Virus record (IMG/VR): IMGVR_UViG_3300032318_002198
Length of the DNA: 64,000 nt
Origin: a virus
Lineage: Duplodnaviria; Heunggongvirae; Uroviricota; Caudoviricetes
Reading direction: 5' to 3' (one strand)
In this document: piece after piece, positions 7,440 to 30,007 of the stretch
How the letters are laid out: each line of letters begins with the position of its first letter
Position numbering within the stretch: position 1 is the first letter of the stretch
Made by a program: the position numbers and the translations under genes
Notes under the pieces: generated by a model
The model's database searches: none
What the model was told of the DNA's origin: nothing
What the model saw: only the letters and a program-made list of their open reading frames with translations

Positions 7440-7982
7440 ATGAAGACCGCTGTGTTTTGTTTTGGCAGAATGAATCCTCCTACATTGGGTCACCGACGGC
7501 TTTTTGATACAATGAAGAGTCAAAGTGGAGATCTTAAAATCTTTTTAAGTAAAAGTCACAACCAAAAAGAAGATCCATTGCCTTATCAGCAAAAGATTTA
7601 TTTTATCAATAGACTTTTTCCGGAATATGGCGGTTATATCATAGAAGATACCAACATTAAAACTGTACTACATGCTGCTAGTTATCTTTATGAAAAAGAA
7701 TATCGCAATGTTACGTTTGTAGCAGGAAGTGATCGTATCGAAGCATTCCAACATTTACTCTTACAATACAATGGAGTATCAAGAAAAGCTCACGGTTATT
7801 ATGATTTTTCAATTTTGAATGTCGTATCCAGCGGTGATCGAGAAGACAACAGCGATGAAATCTCTGGTATTAGTGCTACTAACGCTAGAAATGCTGCCCG
7901 CACCGGAGATTTTGAATCGTTTGTTAAGTCTATTGGGCCCAGTAAATATAATAAAGAATTATTCTCTGCATTAAGAGATTGA
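7440..7982 (+). CDS. Cytidylyltransferase-like (HIGH-family) nucleotidyltransferase
   Basis: FGRMNPPTLGH ((H/T)xGH), VAGSDR and ISATNAR motifs. Confidence 0.8.
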   Translation: MKTAVFCFGRMNPPTLGHRRLFDTMKSQSGDLKIFLSKSHNQKEDPLPYQQKIYFINRLFPEYGGYIIEDTNIKTVLHAASYLYEKEYRNVTFVAGSDRIEAFQHLLLQYNGVSRKAHGYYDFSILNVVSSGDREDNSDEISGISATNARNAARTGDFESFVKSIGPSKYNKELFSALRD

Positions 7983-19865: not shown

Positions 19866-20028
19866 TACATTTGACTTGTTTTTTCCAAGCTAGTTACGAT
19901 AACATATTGATATTCGTAAATTTCTTGATCGTAAAGTAATACAGGACTTGCAAAAAGAAAAAATAAGTGCTACTCTTAGAGATAAAAAGATACCGGAGTC
20001 AAGAAAAAATTATGGAAACAAAAACAAA

Positions 20029-21579
20029 ATGAAAAATAATCCACCAGTTAATTTAACACCCTTACAGAAAGATTATTCTGTATTTTTACCAGCCATCAGC
20101 GGATTCTATAGCACCTATGTAAGTAAACAACAAGCCGGAGAATATGTTCCTAAAAATCGTATCCCTGCCGATTTCGACAGGGGTATCGAAGGGATGAATT
20201 TCTTAAATCCTGAACAAGGATATTTTACTTACAAATATGGTCTGTTTTCTGCAGGGCATGCTCAATTGGACATACAAAAAAGTATTACTCAAGAATCCAT
20301 GATTCAAGGACGAGATCGTACTAAGACAATGATCTTAGGAGATTCTGGCGGTTATCAAATTGGAAAAGGAATTCTTAAGTTTGATTGGGCAGATTTTGAA
20401 GGTCCTAAAGCCAGCAAGGTTCGTCAACAAATCTTAGAATGGTTAGAATTAACTGCCGATTGGTCAATGATGCTTGACGTTCCTACTTGGGCATGCGATC
20501 GTGTTCATAGTCCTAAAACAGGGCTTAAGACTTTTGAAGATTGTTTGGAAAAAACTAAATTCAATAATAACTATTTTTTAACTAACAGATTAGGACAAAC
20601 AAAATTCCTAAATGTTTTACAAGGCAGCGACTGGGAGACTGCTGAAAAATGGTATCAAGGAGTAAAAGAATTCAGCGATCCTGCCGTATGGGGAGATAAA
20701 GCCGCAGAAGGGTGGGCATTTGGTGGTGCAAATATGTGCCGCATGGATGTTACATTAAAGCGATTAATGACATTGCGTGAAGATGGTTTATTAGCAAATA
20801 AAAACTGGATTCACTTCTTGGGTACTGCTCAATTAGACTGGGCATGTTTTTTAACTTCAATTCAACGTCAAATCAGGAGACATATAAATGAAGAAATTAG
20901 CATATCTTTTGACTGCGCCTCGCCATTTATCGCAACAGCAAATGGGCTCGTCTACACAAACGCACAACACCTTACGAAACGTTGGGCGGTTATTATGGAC
21001 AAAGCACCAGATAACAAATCACTCGCAAAGTCAGACATTCCATTCCCATTCGAATCAGAAGTTGGACGTAGACTTGTAATGGGAGATATATGCCATTACG
21101 CTCCTGGCATGTTGAATAAAATTGGAAAAGAAGGAAAAACCAGTTGGGATAGTTTTAGTTACGCACTAATGATGGGCCATAACGTATATTGTCATATCGT
21201 GGCTGTACAACGTGCTAATCATTTAGCAGACATCGAATATGCTAGATTTAAACCAGACTGGCGTCAATGGATTAAAATGAATTCTAAAACTGTTACTAGC
21301 GATGAATTAAGCGATTGGGTTCCACGTAATGTATTATATTTCAATACATTTATTCAAGAATTGTTTGAAACAAAAACTAAAGCAGAAGCATTTAAATTAA
21401 TTGAGCAAGTAAAACCTTTCTTACAAAACTTAGAAGGTGCAAGATCCAAAGGATGGCCTGCACAAAATCAATTCGGCTCGTTATTCTCCGTCGAGGAAAT
21501 AACTAAATCTGAAGAAATCGATATGGAAAATCCTGAAGATCCTGCTTTGAGAAAACTTGAAGGATCTATGGATGAATAA
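20029..21579 (+). CDS. TGT/DpdA-like guanine transglycosylase
   Basis: TGT catalytic motifs in order: GDSGGYQ, MMLDVP, NVLQG, WAFGG, IHFLG, SFDCASP. Start placed at ATG 20029 (frame is open from 19903). Confidence 0.78.
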   Translation: MKNNPPVNLTPLQKDYSVFLPAISGFYSTYVSKQQAGEYVPKNRIPADFDRGIEGMNFLNPEQGYFTYKYGLFSAGHAQLDIQKSITQESMIQGRDRTKTMILGDSGGYQIGKGILKFDWADFEGPKASKVRQQILEWLELTADWSMMLDVPTWACDRVHSPKTGLKTFEDCLEKTKFNNNYFLTNRLGQTKFLNVLQGSDWETAEKWYQGVKEFSDPAVWGDKAAEGWAFGGANMCRMDVTLKRLMTLREDGLLANKNWIHFLGTAQLDWACFLTSIQRQIRRHINEEISISFDCASPFIATANGLVYTNAQHLTKRWAVIMDKAPDNKSLAKSDIPFPFESEVGRRLVMGDICHYAPGMLNKIGKEGKTSWDSFSYALMMGHNVYCHIVAVQRANHLADIEYARFKPDWRQWIKMNSKTVTSDELSDWVPRNVLYFNTFIQELFETKTKAEAFKLIEQVKPFLQNLEGARSKGWPAQNQFGSLFSVEEITKSEEIDMENPEDPALRKLEGSMDE

Positions 21580-22459
21580 TGCACTAGTAATAGGGCTCGG
21601 AATGGGTCAACAATATCGTATTTGGTTGTCGGAACTAAATTACAATGTTAAAACAGTTGATCCTGATCCTACCAAGAATGCCGATTATTCGTCAGTTGAT
21701 CAAGCATTGGCCGAAGATAATTTTTATAACTTGATCTATATCGGAACTCCTAATTGGACTCACGAACCTATTGCTAGACAAGTAGCAGATAAAACAAAAC
21801 TATTGTTGATCGAAAAACCCGGAGTTCTAAATAGTAAATCATGGCAACAATTGATAAATGATTATCCTTCTACAAGAATCATGATGGTTAAAAATAATCA
21901 ATATCGACCAGAAATTGAAAAATTTAAAACATTGTCTGCTACAAGCGAACGAATCTATGTTAGATGGAACAATCGAAATAGAATCCCTCATCCTGGAAGT
22001 TGGTTTACTACAAAATCAAAATCTTTCGGAGGTGTTAGTAGAGATTTAATTCCTCATATGTTAAGTTATTATTGTGCATTAACAGATTACACACAAGGAA
22101 CTAAAATTAAAAGTCACGCAACTCAAAATTATAATCTCGAAAATATTCTCGATACTGATTATGGCACTGTTAATCTCAACGGTATATATGATGTCGATGA
22201 TTTTTGTCACATTGAATTTCAAAACGGGAATACTACTTGGATTCTGAGTGCCAATTGGAAAACTAATTTAGATCATAACGATAGTAGCATTTCATTTAAT
22301 ACAACAAATTCTCCTATAAGATACGAGCTAGGACTTTGTCCCGGTGAAGCATATAAACATATGATTCAATCTGCAACAGAAAATTTAAACAACGATACAT
22401 TTTGGCAAGAACAACTTGCACAGGATATTTGGATTCACGAACAAATTGAACACTTATGA
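21572..22459 (+). CDS. Gfo/Idh/MocA-family NAD(P) oxidoreductase
   Basis: VIGLGMG Rossmann loop, IGTP..TH, IEKP, GG...DL..H. Confidence 0.85.
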   Translation: MNNALVIGLGMGQQYRIWLSELNYNVKTVDPDPTKNADYSSVDQALAEDNFYNLIYIGTPNWTHEPIARQVADKTKLLLIEKPGVLNSKSWQQLINDYPSTRIMMVKNNQYRPEIEKFKTLSATSERIYVRWNNRNRIPHPGSWFTTKSKSFGGVSRDLIPHMLSYYCALTDYTQGTKIKSHATQNYNLENILDTDYGTVNLNGIYDVDDFCHIEFQNGNTTWILSANWKTNLDHNDSSISFNTTNSPIRYELGLCPGEAYKHMIQSATENLNNDTFWQEQLAQDIWIHEQIEHL

Positions 22460-23349
22460 ATAAAGTATTAGTTACTAAAAGCAATGGCAGTTTTTACGAA
22501 ACTGATTATGATTTACCCGACTGCGATGAAGATGGTATACAAGTCCGTGCTATCATGACTGGCATTTGTCGCAGTGATATAGATATGATGCAAGGTAATT
22601 TTGGCCCATTGCCGTTAAACATGCAAGGCCATGAAGGATTGGCTCAAGTAGAAAAAATAGGAAAATATGTCGAAGATGTCAAAATCGGAGATTTTGTCGC
22701 TACTAGGGGTGAACCAGCATATGCCGACAGATATACTGTAAGAGCTAAGGAATATGTTAAAGTACCGGAAGCACATCCTAGATATATTCTAGAACCTGTG
22801 GCTTGTGGCATTAATGTTATACAACAACCTATTAGAGAAATAGCCGAACGTTCAGGACCTGGACGTAGATTATTAATAATGGGTAGTGGCTTTTTAGCTT
22901 GGGTTGCTTACAACACTAGTTTAATCAATCATTTAGATTTTGAATATACTGTGATTGGTTCAAGTAATCAAGAACTATGGGGTCCACGATTAAGTACTGA
23001 TTATAGCGGCAAATTTGACGTTGTTATTGATCTAAGCAGTAGAACTGATGTTTTTACTAAAGACATTATGAACAACGAGGGGTTGGTTGTGTTCGGCAGT
23101 CAGAAAATGATTACTACAGATTTTAGTCAATTACTTTGGAAAGCATGCACTATGGTATTTCCAAGTCCTAGAACTGATAAATTTTATCAATGTATGAAAG
23201 ATGCCGAATCATGGATCACCCACGGAGATTTGCAAGTTGACAATTTTTGGACTAGAGGGTATAATAGAACCATGGAATGGGAACAAGCGTTCTCGGATGG
23301 CAATAATCGATTAGCAAATTACAGCAGAGGATATCTCAAATGGGATTGA
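22456..23349 (+). CDS. Zinc-dependent (MDR) alcohol/polyol dehydrogenase
   Basis: GICRSD, GHEG, V.IGDFV, LEPVACG, GSGFLA. Confidence 0.85.
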   Translation: MNKVLVTKSNGSFYETDYDLPDCDEDGIQVRAIMTGICRSDIDMMQGNFGPLPLNMQGHEGLAQVEKIGKYVEDVKIGDFVATRGEPAYADRYTVRAKEYVKVPEAHPRYILEPVACGINVIQQPIREIAERSGPGRRLLIMGSGFLAWVAYNTSLINHLDFEYTVIGSSNQELWGPRLSTDYSGKFDVVIDLSSRTDVFTKDIMNNEGLVVFGSQKMITTDFSQLLWKACTMVFPSPRTDKFYQCMKDAESWITHGDLQVDNFWTRGYNRTMEWEQAFSDGNNRLANYSRGYLKWD

Positions 23350-23867
23350 ATACACAAGAGCGAAAAAACGTGGTTTACTTTACTGGATACGAAGTAGAAC
23401 ATACTGTCTGTCACGGGATGCGAACACTTTTTGTAGCAGGAACTCCACCGTTCGAAGAGATTCTGAACCAACTAAAAAAACCCGGACACGAAGATATTCA
23501 ACATGTTTACTTTGGAACTAGTCAAAGTTTCAACCCTAAAAATATATCTCAAGAAGAATATAAATCTTGGGATGAAGTAATTTTCGGTTGTTTGAAGGAA
23601 AATTATTGGGTAACTTTAGATTTTGATGTACATCACGTTGAAGGTGTATTGGAATCTGGATATTGCGAACATAACAGATTTGTGCCTATGATCAGTGTCA
23701 AGTTGCCTTATATTAATCAACTAAATTATAATGCTACACTTAAATTGGATGATTTGACTTGGGGTAAAACCAATCCTGGAGTATGGACGCATCATTTGCA
23801 ATCGTTGATGTCAACTAAAAACTATACTCATTGGGATCAATATACCCAAGATGCCGAAATTAATTAA
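23340..23867 (+). CDS. Hypothetical protein of the modification cluster
   Basis: 175-aa alpha/beta ORF translationally coupled to the dehydrogenase. Confidence 0.8.
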   Translation: MGLNTQERKNVVYFTGYEVEHTVCHGMRTLFVAGTPPFEEILNQLKKPGHEDIQHVYFGTSQSFNPKNISQEEYKSWDEVIFGCLKENYWVTLDFDVHHVEGVLESGYCEHNRFVPMISVKLPYINQLNYNATLKLDDLTWGKTNPGVWTHHLQSLMSTKNYTHWDQYTQDAEIN

Positions 23868-24195: not shown

Positions 24196-24579
24196 ATGAA
24201 AGAAGCAAATATGACCACAAAAACATATATTAAAATACGTACAGATTTCGAAGGATATCATTATTATCCTAACGCTGGATCCATTGATCCGCGTATCAGT
24301 TTCCTCGAAAATGAACATCGTCATATGTTCAAGGTCGAAGTGAAAATCTCTGTCTCCCATCTTGACAGAGAGTTAGAATTCTTCTTAGTCAAATGGGCTT
24401 TGAATGAATTCATCCAGGACGGTAACATGAATCACAAAAGTTGTGAAATGATATGTACCGATATTCTTAACCTTCACTTGATTCCTCGTTATGGGGCTAA
24501 TCGTTATTACGAAATCGTCGTTTCGGAAGATGGCGAATCTGATGGTATCGTAGAACACTCACCAACTTTAACAGTTTAA
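24196..24579 (+). CDS. QueD/PTPS-like T-fold enzyme
   Basis: FEGYHYYP...EHRHMF (Zn His pair), RELEF, SCEMI; alternative start at 24211. Confidence 0.65.
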   Translation: MKEANMTTKTYIKIRTDFEGYHYYPNAGSIDPRISFLENEHRHMFKVEVKISVSHLDRELEFFLVKWALNEFIQDGNMNHKSCEMICTDILNLHLIPRYGANRYYEIVVSEDGESDGIVEHSPTLTV

Positions 24580-24596
24580 CTCATAGGAAATTTATC

Positions 24597-24812
24597 ATGG
24601 CTAATCATCCTAACTATATTCAAAAAACCCTTGTTATGAAACCCGAAGTTACTAAAATCTTCGATGACTTGGAAGCATGGTTAGATTATTGTAGATTTAA
24701 TCTAATCGAATATAATCCCAAGCATCTTTACAAGAGTAAAGAATATAAAGAATGGCAACGAGAAAAAGCCAAGGCTGCTAGACACAGCAGAAACGATCAA
24801 CCAATTCACTAA
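24597..24812 (+). CDS. Hypothetical protein
   Basis: AGGA RBS; 71 aa. Confidence 0.7.
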   Translation: MANHPNYIQKTLVMKPEVTKIFDDLEAWLDYCRFNLIEYNPKHLYKSKEYKEWQREKAKAARHSRNDQPIH

Positions 24813-24814
24813 AC

Positions 24815-25888
24815 ATGAGTAATGTATTTGTTGTAGATCTCGAAAGCGTGGAAACACGCTATACGAAACAATGGAAAACTCATGTTCCTGAACTTCTTAA
24901 AAAGGTTGGACACAATGTTCAAGTTATTGACGGCCCTACGGATATCCCAGCTGCTACTACCCCAGGGGCCTTTCTTAATTTTGGCGGGACTAATATTTAC
25001 AAGTCTGCTCAAGTTGAAAAGATTGGCAGAATGTTTTGCGATGGACGCATTTCTAATGGCGACCACTTTCTTTTTACTGATGCTTGGCATCCGGGGATTA
25101 TCAACTTAAAGTACATGAGCGAGCTTCTTGGCATGCCTGTTAAGATCCACGCTCTTTTTCACAGTGGCAGCTATGATCCTGCCGATTTCCTTGGTAGGTT
25201 GATTGGACCTGCACCATGGGTTAGACATGCGGAAAAAAGTTTTTACCACGCCATTGATCATAACTATTTTGCTACGGACTTTCATATTCAAATGTTTGGT
25301 AAAAACTTGTTAGGTTGGCCGCAAGAAATGCGATCTGCCAATTATCGAGCGCATAACATTATTCGAACAGGTTGGCCTATGGAATATATGGAGCAAACAC
25401 TGACTCCGTATAAAAATACCGCCAAAAGAGATTTGATCCTGTTCCCTCATCGTATTGCTCCAGAAAAACAAGTTGAGATCTTTAGAGATATTGCTACGCA
25501 TTTGCCTCAATATGAATTTGTTGTTTGTCAGGATCAACAGTTGACCAAACACGAATATCATACCTTACTAGGACAATCGAAGATTGTGTTTAGCTGTAGT
25601 CTACAAGAAACACTAGGAATTGGCTGCTACGAAGGTGCGTTAGTAGATGCTATCCCAATGGTTCCTGACCGACTATCATACAAAGAGATGTATTACGAAG
25701 GATTCAAATATCCTAGCGAATGGACTGAATCTTGGGAAAAGTATGAAACATACCGGCAGCATGTTTGTCATAACATCATTACTACAATGGAACATTATGA
25801 CAAACGAGTATCATATGTACGTAAACAGGCTCAGGATTTGACTAATCGATTCTTTAGCTGCGATAAACTTTTAGAAAATTTAGTGTAA
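24815..25888 (+). CDS. GT-B (GT4-like) glycosyltransferase
   Basis: LFPHRIAPEKQ, then S.SLQETLGIGCYEG (E-x7-E) and PDRLSYKEM. Confidence 0.85.
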   Translation: MSNVFVVDLESVETRYTKQWKTHVPELLKKVGHNVQVIDGPTDIPAATTPGAFLNFGGTNIYKSAQVEKIGRMFCDGRISNGDHFLFTDAWHPGIINLKYMSELLGMPVKIHALFHSGSYDPADFLGRLIGPAPWVRHAEKSFYHAIDHNYFATDFHIQMFGKNLLGWPQEMRSANYRAHNIIRTGWPMEYMEQTLTPYKNTAKRDLILFPHRIAPEKQVEIFRDIATHLPQYEFVVCQDQQLTKHEYHTLLGQSKIVFSCSLQETLGIGCYEGALVDAIPMVPDRLSYKEMYYEGFKYPSEWTESWEKYETYRQHVCHNIITTMEHYDKRVSYVRKQAQDLTNRFFSCDKLLENLV

Positions 25889-25897
25889 AATAGAAGT

Positions 25898-26368
25898 ATG
25901 TTTTTACTAACCTTACTTAAGAAATTAGGTCGCCATAGAATTATTATGGATAGACAGAATAATGAACCTTATTTAGAAAGATATTACGTTTTTCTAAAAG
26001 ATCGAAAACATTTTCCATTCAATATTTTCATCCATAAATTTTTAAAGTCCGATCCGGACGATGTGCATGATCATCCTTGGCCTTATGCCACTCTAATACT
26101 CAAAGGCGGGTATTACGAATGGGTTCCAAATTTCAATAGCAACGGTATCAAAATCGGTGAGACATGTCATTGGCGTGGTCCTGGTCATTTTAGGTTCTGT
26201 AGTGCTACTAGTTATCACCGAATTGAACTTAAACCTGGCGTAGATTGTTGGACAATGTTTATGCCCGGCCCTCAAAAAAGAGAATGGGGCTTTTTGGTTT
26301 CAAACAATGGAAAAGACAACTGGATTCATAATGACATGTATCTAGAAAATAAAGCAAAGAATAATTAA
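25898..26368 (+). CDS. Cupin-fold metalloprotein
   Basis: VHDHPW...ILKGGYYE...YHRIEL cupin metal ligands. Confidence 0.75.
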   Translation: MFLLTLLKKLGRHRIIMDRQNNEPYLERYYVFLKDRKHFPFNIFIHKFLKSDPDDVHDHPWPYATLILKGGYYEWVPNFNSNGIKIGETCHWRGPGHFRFCSATSYHRIELKPGVDCWTMFMPGPQKREWGFLVSNNGKDNWIHNDMYLENKAKNN

Positions 26369-26373
26369 GAATT

Positions 26374-26766
26374 ATGAATTTACACAACCAACTACCTCAG
26401 TTAGATGAACTAGAAGAACTAGATACTATAAATGTTCCATGGACTAATCCGGTTAGCCAAGATATACATGTTGTTGTTTATAGAGACGGATTTCCTGTAA
26501 CACCAGGGCATTTGTTATTTGTACCTAGATATAATACACCCGAGGTATTGCAAGATGCCTTCTATGATGCGTATAATAAAGGTATGGCAATGATGGCTAA
26601 CGGCGAATGCGACGGCTTTAACATCGGGCTGAATATCGGAACAGCAGCAGGTCAAACTGTTATGTATCCTCATATTCACCTCATACCGAGATATAAAGGT
26701 GATGTTGAGGATCCAACTGGCGGCATTCGAAATGTTATACCCGGAAAAGGAAATTATAGGAAATAA
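26374..26766 (+). CDS. HIT-family nucleotide hydrolase
   Basis: FPVTPGHLLFVP, GFNIGLNIG.AAGQTVMYPHIHLIPR (first His of the triad replaced by Tyr). Confidence 0.9.
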   Translation: MNLHNQLPQLDELEELDTINVPWTNPVSQDIHVVVYRDGFPVTPGHLLFVPRYNTPEVLQDAFYDAYNKGMAMMANGECDGFNIGLNIGTAAGQTVMYPHIHLIPRYKGDVEDPTGGIRNVIPGKGNYRK

Positions 26767-26772
26767 TTGTTT

Positions 26773-26810
26773 CCTTCGCCTTGAACTAAATATAGTGTAC
26801 AAGGTGAGGG
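26773..26810 (+). promoter_or_regulatory. RBS-sequestering hairpin with late promoter (ACTAAATA) in its loop
   Basis: CCTTCGCCTTG pairs with CAAGGTGAGGG (11 bp including 2 G-U); the right arm is the SD of the HNH gene. Confidence 0.75.
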
Positions 26811-26815
26811 TCAAA

Positions 26816-28141
26816 ATGAATAAGCACTACAAAAATCGATACGATAAATTTATTCACTATTTAAAAAATAACACAAATAGAACTATTCAAGGTTATACCG
26901 AAATACATCATATTCAGCCTAGATGTCTCAAAGGATCAAATTTACCTAGCAATTTAATTGAATTATCATTAAGAGAACACTTTTTAGCACATTGGTTATT
27001 ATGGAAAGCATATCCAAACTATTTGCCTTTGGCTAGTGCGTTCTTACAAATGAACCACAAAAATCCAAAACTAAAAGAATTTCAGGGAAGAATTTCAAGC
27101 CGTACATACGAAAAATTAAAAACTGAAACCTATAAAATGATCGGTGAACTTAATACCGACAAGGTCAATGTTCGCGACGCCAATGGACAAAAATTAAGAA
27201 TTTCTAAAGAAGATTATAAAAATAGCAATTATAAATTTCATACAACAGGTAAAATTTATGTATTAGACACATTTAGTGATAAATGGGTATATATAGAATC
27301 AAAAGAATATCAAGAAAATAAAGATAGATATAAGAGTAGAATGAGCCTAGAGGGATTTCCAAGACCAGGCAATCCGAGTCCTATAGGAAATAGTAATGCT
27401 GCTATAGACGTTAACTTTTGTAAATATCATTTTTTAGACCAAGAATCTCAAGAAATATTTAAAATTACTAAAACTCAAGCAAGAGAACGTAATAAAGAAT
27501 ATGGATATAAAAGACTAAAACAACTCCAAAAGAAAAAAGTTAAATGTATTGACGATCTAGGTAATATTGTTTATATATCTTTAAATGACTATGATCCAAA
27601 TATTCACAACCATTACTCTAAAAATACCGTTAATGTTTTCGATCTAGAACACCAATGTCAAACAATTATTTCCTGTGAAGAATATTATCTAAATAAGAAT
27701 AGGTATTTGACATCGACTAAAGGAAAGGTATTGGCCAAGGACCTCTTAGGTAATCAATTTTTGATTAAACAAGATGAATTTAAATCCGGTGGATATGTGG
27801 GACAAACAAAAGGATTGAGAACCGTACTAAACAAAGAAACCGGTATATATCAACAGATAGATCAAGACGAATATCAAAAAAATAAAGAAAAATATATCGG
27901 ACCAAATCAAGGTAAAGTTAATGTCATAAACAAATTTACAGGAGAAAGAAAACAAATACCTAAATCTGATTTTGATAAAGACATCTATTGTGGTTTGGGT
28001 AATAAAAAATATTTGTTCTTATGCAGAAATAAGTTGACATTAAAAGAAAAATATATTAATATATACGAATGGAATTTAGTCAAAGACCAATATGAAATCA
28101 TAGATCAAAATAAATTCAAAACCATTTTAGATTTTATCTAA
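26816..28141 (+). mobile_element. Free-standing HNH homing endonuclease with a repeat-rich C-terminus
   Basis: EIHHIQPRCLKGSNLPSNLIELSLREHFLAH; start placed at ATG 26816. Confidence 0.85.
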
Positions 28142-28169: not shown

Positions 28170-29055
28170 ATGCTATCCAAGATCAAGATCTCGGAATTTT
28201 TTTTTTTTTTTTTTTAGTATTCAAGGAGAAGGTAGATACATGGGGGTTCCAAGTATCTTTTTAAGAACCTTTGGTTGTAATTTTCGTTGTAAAAACTTCG
28301 GAAGATATGAAAAAGATATTCTAGGAATCGAACAAACATACAACCCAGAAGTTGTTCAAATTATTAATAATTTAGATCAATATAAGTCGTATAATGATTT
28401 ACCACTAGTTAGTACCGGTTGTGACTCGTACGCCGCGGTTTATTCAGAATTTAAAAATCTTTCTCCAATGTACGATAGTGACACATTAGCTAAATCAATC
28501 ATCGAGCTCCTTCCACACAAAGAATGGAAAGAAGAACATCTTGTAATTACCGGAGGTGAACCATTGCTAGGTTGGCAACGTGCATATCCTGCATTGTTGG
28601 ATCATCCTAAAATGATTTCTCTAAAAGAACTAACGTTTGAAACAAATGGTACACAAAAAATAACTCCGGAATTTAGTGATTATTTGTATCACTGGGGTAT
28701 TGAAACTCGCGGTTGGGGAGCATTAACATTCAGTGTTAGTGCCAAATTAAGTGTCAGCGGAGAAAAGAGAGAAGAAGCAATCCTTCCGGAAGTAATTTGC
28801 CAATATGAACAATTAGGATATACTTATTTAAAATTTGTTGTTGCAACAGACGAAGATGCTAACGAAGCATTGGAAGTTACTCAATTATATCGAAATGCCG
28901 GTTTTAAAGGTCCTGTATACCTAATGCCAGTAGGTGGTGTTGAAAATGTGTATAAGTTAAATAACCGTCGTGTCGCCGAACTTGCAATGAAACATGGTTT
29001 AAGATACAGCGATAGACTTCAAGTTCCGCTTTTCAAGAACGCTTGGGGAACATAA
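28170..29055 (+). CDS. queE: QueE-like radical SAM 7-carboxy-7-deazaguanine synthase, frameshifted at a poly-T tract as assembled
   Basis: ATG 28170 (AAGGA RBS) reads MLSKIKISE, then T19, then SIQGEGRYMGVPSIFLRTFGCNFRC...GCDS, ITGGEP and ETNGT in the +1 frame. Confidence 0.85.
28197..28215 (+). repeat. T19 homopolymer
   Basis: 19 consecutive T; the longest homopolymer noticed in the window. Confidence 0.95.
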
Positions 29056-29056
29056 G

Positions 29057-30007
29057 TTGAGAATCGTTTTTAATTTAATGAATCATTTTAATCCCATGTC
29101 AGGGGGATTAAACGTTGTCATAAATGCTATGCATCACTTGAAGGAAGAAAACTTCGAAGTATGCATATATTACTATGCATACGAACAACAAGAATCTATA
29201 CACCTTGGACTCGAAAAAAATTTTAAGAGATTAACATTAGATGAATTGAATCCGTTTACTGACATTGTAGTTGTTGCTGAAGAATTTATTTGGATAGCTC
29301 ACGATTTCTTAAAACCAAGAGGAATCAAATATATAATCTTTAACCAAGGAATATCTGCTTGCCTATATTCCCATAATCCATACTCTGAACATAAAACAAC
29401 CTATCATGAGGCAACTAGCATTCTTGTAAATTCATTACATACTGCTCGTGGCGTGGAAAAGTTATTTGATGTTCCTGCTAACAAAATCTTTATGCATAGA
29501 ATGGGCATCGATCCATCTATGTATTATCCAGAACCTAAAGAATATATTGCATCGTGTTTAGCATATAAAAACGGAAACTTTGTTAGGTTTATAGAACATT
29601 ATTTCAAAGACAAGTATCCGGATTGGCGTTTTGAAGTCATTAATTTATTGCCTAGACACGAAACTGCTGCAATATTTAGAAAATCAAAATTATTCTTGGC
29701 ATTTGGCGGGCCTGAAGGATTTGGCCTACCTCCACTAGAGGCAGCATTGTGTGGTTGTAAAGTAATAGGATTTACCGGAGGGGGTGGGGAAGAATATTTC
29801 AAATCTCCTATATTTACTGCTGTAAATTTCATGGATCATATTGATTTTGTGGAGAAATTAGATACTGTTATAAAAACAATAAATGTATCTTATTTAGAAG
29901 ATCAAGAATATATAACATATTTGCGAAATCACTATAGTAAAGAACAATCAAAAGACAGTATTGTAAGATTTTTTTCGTACATAAAAGAAAACTTTTTTAA
30001 TATATAA
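29057..30007 (+). CDS. Second GT-B (GT4-like) glycosyltransferase
   Basis: PMSGGLNV N-terminal loop; GPEGFGLPPLEAALCG (E-x7-E); TTG start 1 nt after the queE stop. Confidence 0.85.
   Translation: MRIVFNLMNHFNPMSGGLNVVINAMHHLKEENFEVCIYYYAYEQQESIHLGLEKNFKRLTLDELNPFTDIVVVAEEFIWIAHDFLKPRGIKYIIFNQGISACLYSHNPYSEHKTTYHEATSILVNSLHTARGVEKLFDVPANKIFMHRMGIDPSMYYPEPKEYIASCLAYKNGNFVRFIEHYFKDKYPDWRFEVINLLPRHETAAIFRKSKLFLAFGGPEGFGLPPLEAALCGCKVIGFTGGGGEEYFKSPIFTAVNFMDHIDFVEKLDTVIKTINVSYLEDQEYITYLRNHYSKEQSKDSIVRFFSYIKENFFNI

Follow-up and report, generated by a model that had tools for sequence, protein, structure and literature searches.

A phage glycosyltransferase distantly related to DUF3524/QTMAN lies in a QueC-less 7-deazaguanine gene module and may glycosylate a modified guanine in phage DNA

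Introduction

Does a phage glycosyltransferase encoded among 7-deazaguanine genes decorate a modified guanine, and if so, would it act on DNA, on tRNA, or on a free precursor? This question is raised by a 64,000-nucleotide stretch of the Caudoviricetes record IMGVR_UViG_3300032318_002198 (hereafter the window), in which an open reading frame (ORF) at 24815..25888 on the + strand encodes a glycosyltransferase (GT; hereafter the target GT). An original prediction, made from the sequence of the window, had likened this protein to the family of GTDC1/DUF3524 enzymes and had placed it beside queD-, queE- and tgt-like genes. GTDC1, now QTMAN, is the animal tRNA-queuosine alpha-mannosyltransferase, and its donor is GDP-mannose.

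We propose, with about even confidence, that the target GT belongs to a QueC-less 7-deazaguanine DNA module, and that it glycosylates a base derived from 7-carboxy-7-deazaguanine (CDG) or 7-deazaguanine (DG) in phage DNA. The fold of the protein, its specific homology, the conservation of the operon, and the absence of QueC from five related genomes are directly supported by the analyses described below.

Results

The Target Glycosyltransferase and Its Phage Family

24815..25888, + strand: GT-B/GT4 retaining-type glycosyltransferase of a QTMAN/DUF3524-related clade, 357 amino acids (aa) (ORF, alignment, AlphaFold2 model, HHalign)

The ORF runs from an ATG to a stop codon and contains LILFPHRIAPEKQVEIF as well as YHTLLGQSKIVFSCSLQETLGIGCYEGALVDAIPMVPDRLSYKEM; both strings quoted in the original prediction occur exactly in this frame. 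The target GT is a real, conserved gene. Its family comprises more than 8000 matching 90%-identity clusters, on contigs of up to 376 kb, and 1150 representatives at 50% clustering (E ≤ 1e-3). The conserved residues include H212-R213...K218, E265-x7-E273, and PxVPDRLSYxE. In an alignment of 44 diverse members, E273 is invariant, E265 is nearly invariant, and the two are separated by a seven-residue spacing, while R213 and K218 are also nearly invariant; the C-terminal E-x7-E and the phosphate-binding Arg/Lys of GT4 enzymes are present in the family. Additionally, the phage clade carries an N-domain insert of its own (GAFLNF..TN..KS.Q).

The family is a large, phage-restricted clade that is essentially viral. 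Its Atlas clusters are 95-100% viral, and no close cellular relative was found in a single-protein scan of ∼185,000 cellular genomes, a scan able to detect close relatives only. The window is part of a jumbo-phage genome: the cluster of the target protein itself sits on a 332-kb contig, the composition is AT-rich (about 31-39% GC), and the window also encodes PolB, a ClpB-like ATPase, DHFR, ThyA, virion and tail proteins, and a 4444-aa ORF. Among cultured phages, the target GT has homologs in Sinorhizobium phage Phosso (47% identity), the PA5oct/MIJ3/Callisto group of Pseudomonas jumbo phages (43%), and Acidovorax phage ACP17 (34%), as well as in Xanthomonas, Burkholderia, Erwinia, and Synechococcus phages (24-26%). 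The GTs of ACP17, PA5oct, Phosso, and the cyanophage BUCT-ZZ01 match the profile of the target family at 99.7-100%.

Profile Comparison With DUF3524/QTMAN

The DUF3524 set was obtained by a Pfam QTMAN_N search of 401 Bacteroidota genomes, sampled via a 16S probe site, of which 102 contain the full-length domain (E 1e-39 to 1e-66). The comparison used these bacterial Pfam QTMAN_N proteins as stand-ins for animal GTDC1/QTMAN. As controls we used 30 generic GT4 proteins in 10 ortholog groups from five Bacteroidota genomes (one phylum), along with a second glycosyltransferase of the window (GT2; 29057..30007).

The original prediction had set specific affinity to GTDC1/DUF3524 as its own test, and the profiles bore this out: HHalign matched the target family to DUF3524 at 99.2% (E 6.7e-20, 284 aligned columns), and to the ten generic GT4 ortholog groups at 16% or less. 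Because the control profiles were shallow, the comparison was rerun at matched depth with single sequences, and the two sets separated completely, with scores of 95-124 for 17/17 DUF3524 sequences (about 98%, E 1e-13 to 1e-17) and of 12-34 for 30/30 generic GT4 controls. Reciprocally, DUF3524 scored 147 against the target family, and generic GT4 enzymes at most 53; GT2 reached 1.0% against the DUF3524 profile. As single sequences, the target GT matched DUF3524 at 89%, the GTs of ACP17, PA5oct, and Phosso at 93-97%, and that of BUCT-ZZ01 at 52%.

The alignment with DUF3524 is co-linear across both domains, with shared blocks, and its signal lies mainly in the C-terminal half. The C-domain alone matched DUF3524 at 99.2% (E 3e-19; generic GT4 ≤31.5%), and the N-domain, the part corresponding to QTMAN_N, matched at 30.5% (score 29.7, co-linear over 140 columns; controls ≤1.7%). 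The GTDC1/DUF3524 motifs given in the original prediction do occur in authentic DUF3524 proteins: the bacterial proteins carry WNHRWEYDKNPEEFF and SNQDFFGGSVIEA...CFPLLPNRLAYPE, and read QDFFGGSVIEA...PLLPNRLAYPE. The family-specific C-domain motifs (HR-x4/5-K-x-P..F, [ED]x7E, and P..P[ND]RL[SA]Y.E) are present in the target family and align column by column. K218 of the target family falls opposite the lysine in the YDK motif of the bacterial proteins; in human QTMAN, K296 is reported to be catalytic, and the K296A substitution abolishes manQ.

Judged from these alignments, DUF3524/QTMAN is the closest relative found for the phage clade among the families tested. We read the phage clade as a true, though remote, sister group of DUF3524/QTMAN within GT4; given the weak N-domain match, we describe it as a sister clade and not as a Pfam-level member of QTMAN. 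The catalytic, donor-binding half would then be conserved and the acceptor half strongly diverged. Since the signal comes mainly from the donor-binding C-domain, the homology informs on catalysis and donor more than on a shared acceptor.

Standard Annotation and Fold

As a single sequence, the target GT has no match in Pfam, PHROGs, or NCBIfam. The Pfam family Glycos_transf_1 (PF00534) does not match it at E ≤ 1, and matches 32 of the 44 aligned family members weakly (best E 4.7e-6); the GT4 assignment is therefore based on fold and motifs, the PF00534 gathering threshold not being reached. A profile search of PDB sequences with the target family returned no QTMAN chain and a weak C-domain match to the Actinobacillus glucosyltransferase 8xsg (E 2e-4).

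The AlphaFold2 model (mean predicted local distance difference test (pLDDT) 94.7, predicted TM-score 0.92) has GT-B architecture, with two Rossmann-like domains and an interdomain cleft. The top Foldseek and VIA-align matches are sucrose-phosphate synthase, BshA, archaeal glycogen synthase, PglA, GlgM, and PimA/PimB, with Foldseek E values down to 1e-11, Z scores of 21-26, and root-mean-square deviations of 3.3-4.0 over about 290-320 residues. Full-length matches to GT4/GT5 enzymes include 6kih (Z 26.3), BshA (24.9), glycogen synthase (23.1), and PimA (21.2). The ESM Atlas lists a bacterial QTMAN_N cluster with a TM value of 0.75, compared with 0.75-0.81 for generic GT4 rows, and an Atlas feature search with the target listed viral clusters and generic GT4 enzymes, and no others. 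As modeled, the structure proves membership in the GT-B superfamily and is silent on QTMAN. Of the two lines of evidence named in the original prediction, the profile comparison thus came out specific to DUF3524, whereas Foldseek placed generic GT4 enzymes on top.

Conservation of the 7-Deazaguanine Module

Three neighbors of the target GT form the core of the module:

19948..21579, + strand: tRNA-guanine transglycosylase (TGT)/DpdA-fold guanine transglycosylase, 543 aa (fold, invariant motifs)
24196..24579, + strand: DpdL, a QueD paralog and proposed CDG decarboxylase, 127 aa (LxxxHRHxF signature)
28170..29055 (called ORF from 28240), + strand: QueE-like radical-SAM CDG synthase, frame interrupted (PHROG 1e-38, NCBIfam QueE models)

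The gene context was compared across 82 loci, comprising 80 IMG/VR loci (53-83% GT identity), PA5oct, and Phosso. Of these, 31 extend for 9 kb or more to each side of the GT (hereafter full-flank loci). The GT is accompanied by a TGT-fold gene, DpdL, QueE, and two replication-module genes in 31/31 full-flank loci, and by PolB and a 5′-3′ exonuclease in 30 of them. In ACP17, the operon consists of QueD, FolE, a 424-aa gene in the DpdA position, the GT, DpdL, and QueE, with genes that abut or overlap; that of BUCT-ZZ01 consists of QueE, QueD, FolE, a GT-like gene, a 416-aa gene in the DpdA position, DpdL, and the GT. The GT adjoins DpdL in Phosso, PA5oct, ACP17, and BUCT-ZZ01. In five related genomes (two from isolates and three from IMG/VR, the latter 67-100% complete), canonical FolE and PTPS/QueD are each present in 5/5 and QueC in 0/5. 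Neither FolE nor QueD was seen among the window ORFs scanned; the window spans 64 kb of the 332-kb genome.

In BUCT-ZZ01, a gene annotated as xanthine-guanine phosphoribosyltransferase (L281:4093-4554) lies between QueE and QueD, which hints that in some lineages the deazaguanine base might also be routed to the nucleotide level.

The three core neighbors agree with those named in the original prediction, with the queD-like gene now refined to DpdL. The 543-aa transglycosylase shares 42% identity with the gene that immediately precedes the GT in PA5oct, and carries the invariant motifs GDSGG.Q and FDCASP. Pfam TGT does not detect it, and the HHalign match of its family to bacterial Tgt is weak (17%); the assignment therefore uses the fold, for which the top 50 Foldseek matches of the AlphaFold2 model (pLDDT 80.5) are all tRNA-guanine transglycosylases. 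The form shared by the window and PA5oct may represent an undescribed DpdA subfamily. The DpdA3 subfamily was considered for this protein and not adopted (6.7% against phiST DpdA3). In Phosso, a homolog of the 543-aa transglycosylase lies ∼170 kb from the GT. The DpdA-position transglycosylases of GT-containing phages are extremely divergent from one another (259 to 543 aa): HHalign values between those compared (window 19948-21579, L282:7715-8989, L281:7346-8596, L283:6819-7598) range from 0.2 to 48%, and Pfam TGT detects none of them.

For the 127-aa protein, HMMER-level searches of PDB and Pfam returned no match, and HHalign against bacterial QueD was weak (16%, with a QueD set that included mis-called ORFs). 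Its assignment to DpdL follows from the published motif and from the match to phiST DpdL (99.0%, E 4e-18, against the family profile). The signature LxxxHRHxF, which replaces the QueD motif CxxxHGH, defines DpdL, which is proposed to decarboxylate CDG in phages with DpdA, FolE, QueD, and QueE but without QueC (Cui, Hutinet et al., NAR 2023; PMC10516641). The window protein reads L-E-N-E-H-R-H-M-F, the family consensus is L..PHRHIF, and H22, H41, and H43 are invariant. A role for this gene as the QueD of the pathway was rejected, as canonical QueD is located elsewhere in related genomes and the catalytic Cys is replaced by Leu.

The queE frame is broken by a T19 tract (28197-28215), beyond which the conserved SIQGEG... 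continuation lies one base out of frame. From the ATG at 28170, the sequence reads MLSKIKISE and six Phe codons before a TAG, with the SIQGEGRYMGVPS... continuation out of frame, and relatives read ...SELFYS[IV]QGEG... in the absence of a tract. At this position, one related locus (L198) carries a T14 tract, and its called ORF likewise begins with MGVPS. The tract could reflect a homopolymer sequencing error, slippage, or phase variation.

Discussion

Proposed Role and Alternatives

From the gene context, we infer a deazaguanine base as the acceptor and DNA as the substrate. In the proposed pathway, FolE, QueD, and QueE would make CDG, the QueD paralog DpdL would process CDG to DG, and the TGT-fold DpdA-type enzyme would exchange guanine in the phage DNA for the deazaguanine base. 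The GT would add a sugar from a nucleoside diphosphate (NDP)-sugar to the 7-deazaguanine-derived base, most likely on the polynucleotide, in parallel with the action of QTMAN on queuosine 34 (Q34) in tRNA. The resulting glycosylated 7-deazaguanine would protect the DNA against host nucleases. In phiST, a DpdA3/DpdL phage, every G in the DNA is replaced by 7-deazaguanine (dDG) (PMC10516641), and the DNA of PA5oct is resistant to enzymes whose sites contain G and is a target of sensors of modified G (PMC12191111). More broadly, and with somewhat less than even confidence, we suggest that the DNA of a large clade spanning jumbo, T4-like, and cyano-phages carries a glycosylated 7-deazaguanine in place of guanine, and that this base is the work of a phage branch of the QTMAN family.

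It is unlikely that the GT instead acts before insertion, on a free base or small molecule (CDG, DG, or a pterin such as the QueD/DpdL substrate), in which case either the DpdA-type enzyme would insert a base that has its sugar beforehand or the product would stay out of DNA altogether. The adjacency of the GT and DpdL is the tightest link in the module, and the predicted substrate of DpdL is the free base (PMC10516641). The family is also acidic (median isoelectric point 5.7, not more basic than generic GT4 enzymes), with no obvious nucleic-acid-binding charge. The target model matches the GT4 pterin glucosyltransferase BGluT (5zer; Z 20.9), but no better than it matches dozens of generic GT4 enzymes; QTMAN, the closest family, acts on a polynucleotide, and a TGT active site would need to take a much bulkier base. 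We consider it quite unlikely that the GT is a QTMAN analogue acting on tRNA, where it would glycosylate queuosine or another 7-deazaguanosine at position 34 of host or phage tRNAs and retune translation, its link to the DNA-modification genes being indirect. QTMAN, its sole characterized relative, does mannosylate Q34 of tRNA-Asp, TGT-fold enzymes can be tRNA enzymes, and bacterial DUF3524 genes stand alone, as is often the case for tRNA-modification genes. However, with QueC in none of the five related genomes, these phages encode no preQ0/queuosine route (QueF, QueA, and QueG not having been searched for), and queuosine would therefore have to be that of the host. The GT strictly co-occurs with DpdL, which has no role in queuosine synthesis; the window contains no tRNA genes, PA5oct has modified G in its DNA, and the acceptor-binding N-domain is strongly diverged from DUF3524.

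An ordinary GT4 enzyme with an unrelated acceptor (a cell-envelope glycan, a phage protein, or a hydroxymethyl-pyrimidine in DNA), for which both the QTMAN motifs and the gene context would be uninformative, is very unlikely. Such an enzyme would fit the weak Glycos_transf_1 matches that are all Pfam sees, the generic GT4 enzymes that come first in fold searches, the structural match to T4 alpha-glucosyltransferase (Z 17.9), and the Joint Genome Institute (JGI) names of some members (“involved in cell wall biosynthesis”). Yet the HHalign affinity is specific and survives the depth-matched controls, the operon is kept in 31/31 loci and recurs in T4-like phages, cyanophages, and jumbo phages alike, and the family is essentially viral. 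Furthermore, ThyA stands beside DHFR in the window, the usual place for an ordinary thymidylate synthase, and a hydroxymethylase was not seen there.

Several observations weigh against the proposal that the GT glycosylates a 7-deazaguanine-derived base in phage DNA. Pfam QTMAN_N (PF12038) does not match the target GT, is not among the families listed for the 44 aligned members at E ≤ 10, and has no match in the Phosso or PA5oct genomes; the resemblance of the N-domain to QTMAN_N is a weak, remote similarity, and fold searches with the model do not separate QTMAN from other GT4 enzymes. The bacterial DUF3524 members, on which the comparison was built, are themselves uncharacterized proteins. 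In phiST and its relatives, as well as several Vibrio, Rhizobium, Aeromonas, and Chryseobacterium phages, DpdL is present but the GT is not, and the GT is therefore dispensable for base insertion. The interrupted queE frame may mean that the pathway is off in this genome, or that the base call is wrong. Finally, dDG, the sole product shown for a DpdL system, lacks a hydroxyl or amine at C7. This leaves three options for the attachment of a sugar: a retained carboxyl that forms an ester, a different C7 substituent, or a sugar on carbon or another atom. Candidate products are dCDG esterified with a sugar, dDG with a sugar linked at C7, and a base whose sugar sits on another C7 side chain.

Accessory Genes in the Window

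Further genes lie between and around the members of the module:

21557..22459, + strand: Gfo/Idh/MocA oxidoreductase (Pfam; 3/31 full-flank loci)
22456..23349, + strand: Zn-ADH-like dehydrogenase (Pfam; 3/31 full-flank loci)
23340..23867, + strand: 175-aa ORF overlapping the dehydrogenase gene (no family match; 9/31 loci)
24597..24812, + strand: small ORF of 71 aa between DpdL and the GT (11/31 full-flank loci)
25898..26368, + strand: cupin, directly downstream of the GT (PHROG/Pfam; 3/31 full-flank loci, 13/82 loci)
26374..26766, + strand: HIT-family protein (PHROG/Pfam, NCBIfam HIT; 6/31 full-flank loci, 19/82 loci)
26699..28141, + strand: HNH homing endonuclease between the HIT gene and queE (PHROG homing endonuclease, 6e-33)
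29057..30007, + strand: GT2, a second, generic GT4 glycosyltransferase, 316 aa (Pfam PF00534, 7e-7; 1/82 and 0/31 loci)

The 71-aa ORF stops 2 nucleotides before the start codon of the GT. The oxidoreductase and dehydrogenase genes always occur together (5/82 loci) and always between the transglycosylase and DpdL, and probably serve to tailor a sugar or cyclitol. GT2 is nearly unique to the lineage of the window and has no QTMAN affinity; the operon of BUCT-ZZ01 likewise has a second GT-like gene, of 447 aa. The oxidoreductase pair, the cupin, the HIT protein, and GT2 are all lineage-specific; together, they suggest further tailoring or extension of a sugar and, if the proposed role of the target GT is correct, would perform it in the lineage of the window.

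The HNH gene, found in one other of the 82 related loci, is a selfish insert outside the pathway. In PA5oct, a Hef-like homing endonuclease splits the DNA polymerase in the corresponding module. A cytidylyltransferase-like (HIGH-motif) nucleotidyltransferase is encoded at 7440-7982 in the window, ∼17 kb upstream of the GT. It occurs within 10 kb of the GT in no related locus, and a role in supplying a sugar-nucleotide donor is possible but unsupported.

Implications

To our knowledge, eight 7-deazaguanine derivatives are known in phage DNA, none of them with a sugar, and glycosylated bases in phage DNA are known on pyrimidines only. The target GT predicts the combination of the two, a sugar and a 7-deazaguanine in DNA. 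We found no prior link between a GT and DpdA/DpdL in the DpdA/DpdL, PA5oct, and MIJ3 papers or in a 2026 jumbo-phage review. If the proposal is correct, the product would be a DNA base absent from the literature searched, the enzyme would be the first of the QTMAN family to act on DNA, and the two would connect phage DNA hypermodification in evolution with the glyco-queuosine of animal tRNA. The uncharacterized DUF3524/QTMAN family would also gain a second link to 7-deazaguanine, independent of the first.

The prediction concerns phages already in culture, namely PA5oct and its relatives, ACP17, Phosso, and BUCT-ZZ01, and may explain the chemical identity of the “modified G” of PA5oct. Additionally, the GT is a candidate marker for very abundant environmental jumbo phages (at least 1150 clusters at 50% identity).

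Comparison With Known Systems

The T4 alpha- and beta-glucosyltransferases are, like the target GT in its proposed role, phage GT-B enzymes that decorate a pre-modified DNA base for anti-restriction. They differ in that they have no specific sequence relationship to the target GT and in their acceptor, a pyrimidine hydroxymethyl group made at the nucleotide level, for which no such pathway was seen in the window.

The gene logic of phiST is the same as that of the GT phages (FolE, QueD, QueE, DpdL, a TGT-family DpdA, no QueC, and a location beside replication genes), except that phiST has no GT and that its DpdA3, at 259 aa, is barely alignable with the 543-aa transglycosylase. ACP17 is listed as a DpdL phage, and DpdA and DpdL of phiST and of ACP17 gave no dDG in E. 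coli, such that other enzymes may be required (PMC10516641); that paper mentions no glycosyltransferase. In ACP17, the GT lies between the DpdA-position gene and DpdL. It was not included in that experiment, and this may explain the failure of the ACP17 pair.

Bacterial DUF3524 proteins are cellular, are encoded by stand-alone genes, and are ∼20% identical to the phage clade. The motifs common to both are LEP....QW, [FW]H...Y[DP], D.[NV]FF.[TS].[FY]H, [PN]HR....K.P..F, [ED]x7E, and P..P[ND]RL[SA]Y.E. There are often two DUF3524 paralogs of about 370 aa per genome. In the Bacteroidota loci inspected (L123-L147, L284-L303), no queuosine-related genes adjoin them, and the neighbors instead encode Nramp, LamB/YcsF, carboxyltransferase subunits, and peptidases. 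We know of no glycosylated queuosine in bacteria.

In Pfam terms, QTMAN consists of QTMAN_N (PF12038, formerly DUF3524) and Glycos_transf_1. QTMAN and the phage GT have in common the GT-B/GT4 architecture, a similar size, and a homology that appears co-linear through both domains. QTMAN is cellular, whereas the phage clade is viral, and the substrate of QTMAN is tRNA queuosine with its cyclopentenediol, whereas that of the phage GT is likely DNA with a CDG/DG-type base. For both enzymes, there is nevertheless an association with a 7-deazaguanine base that a TGT-fold protein puts in place.

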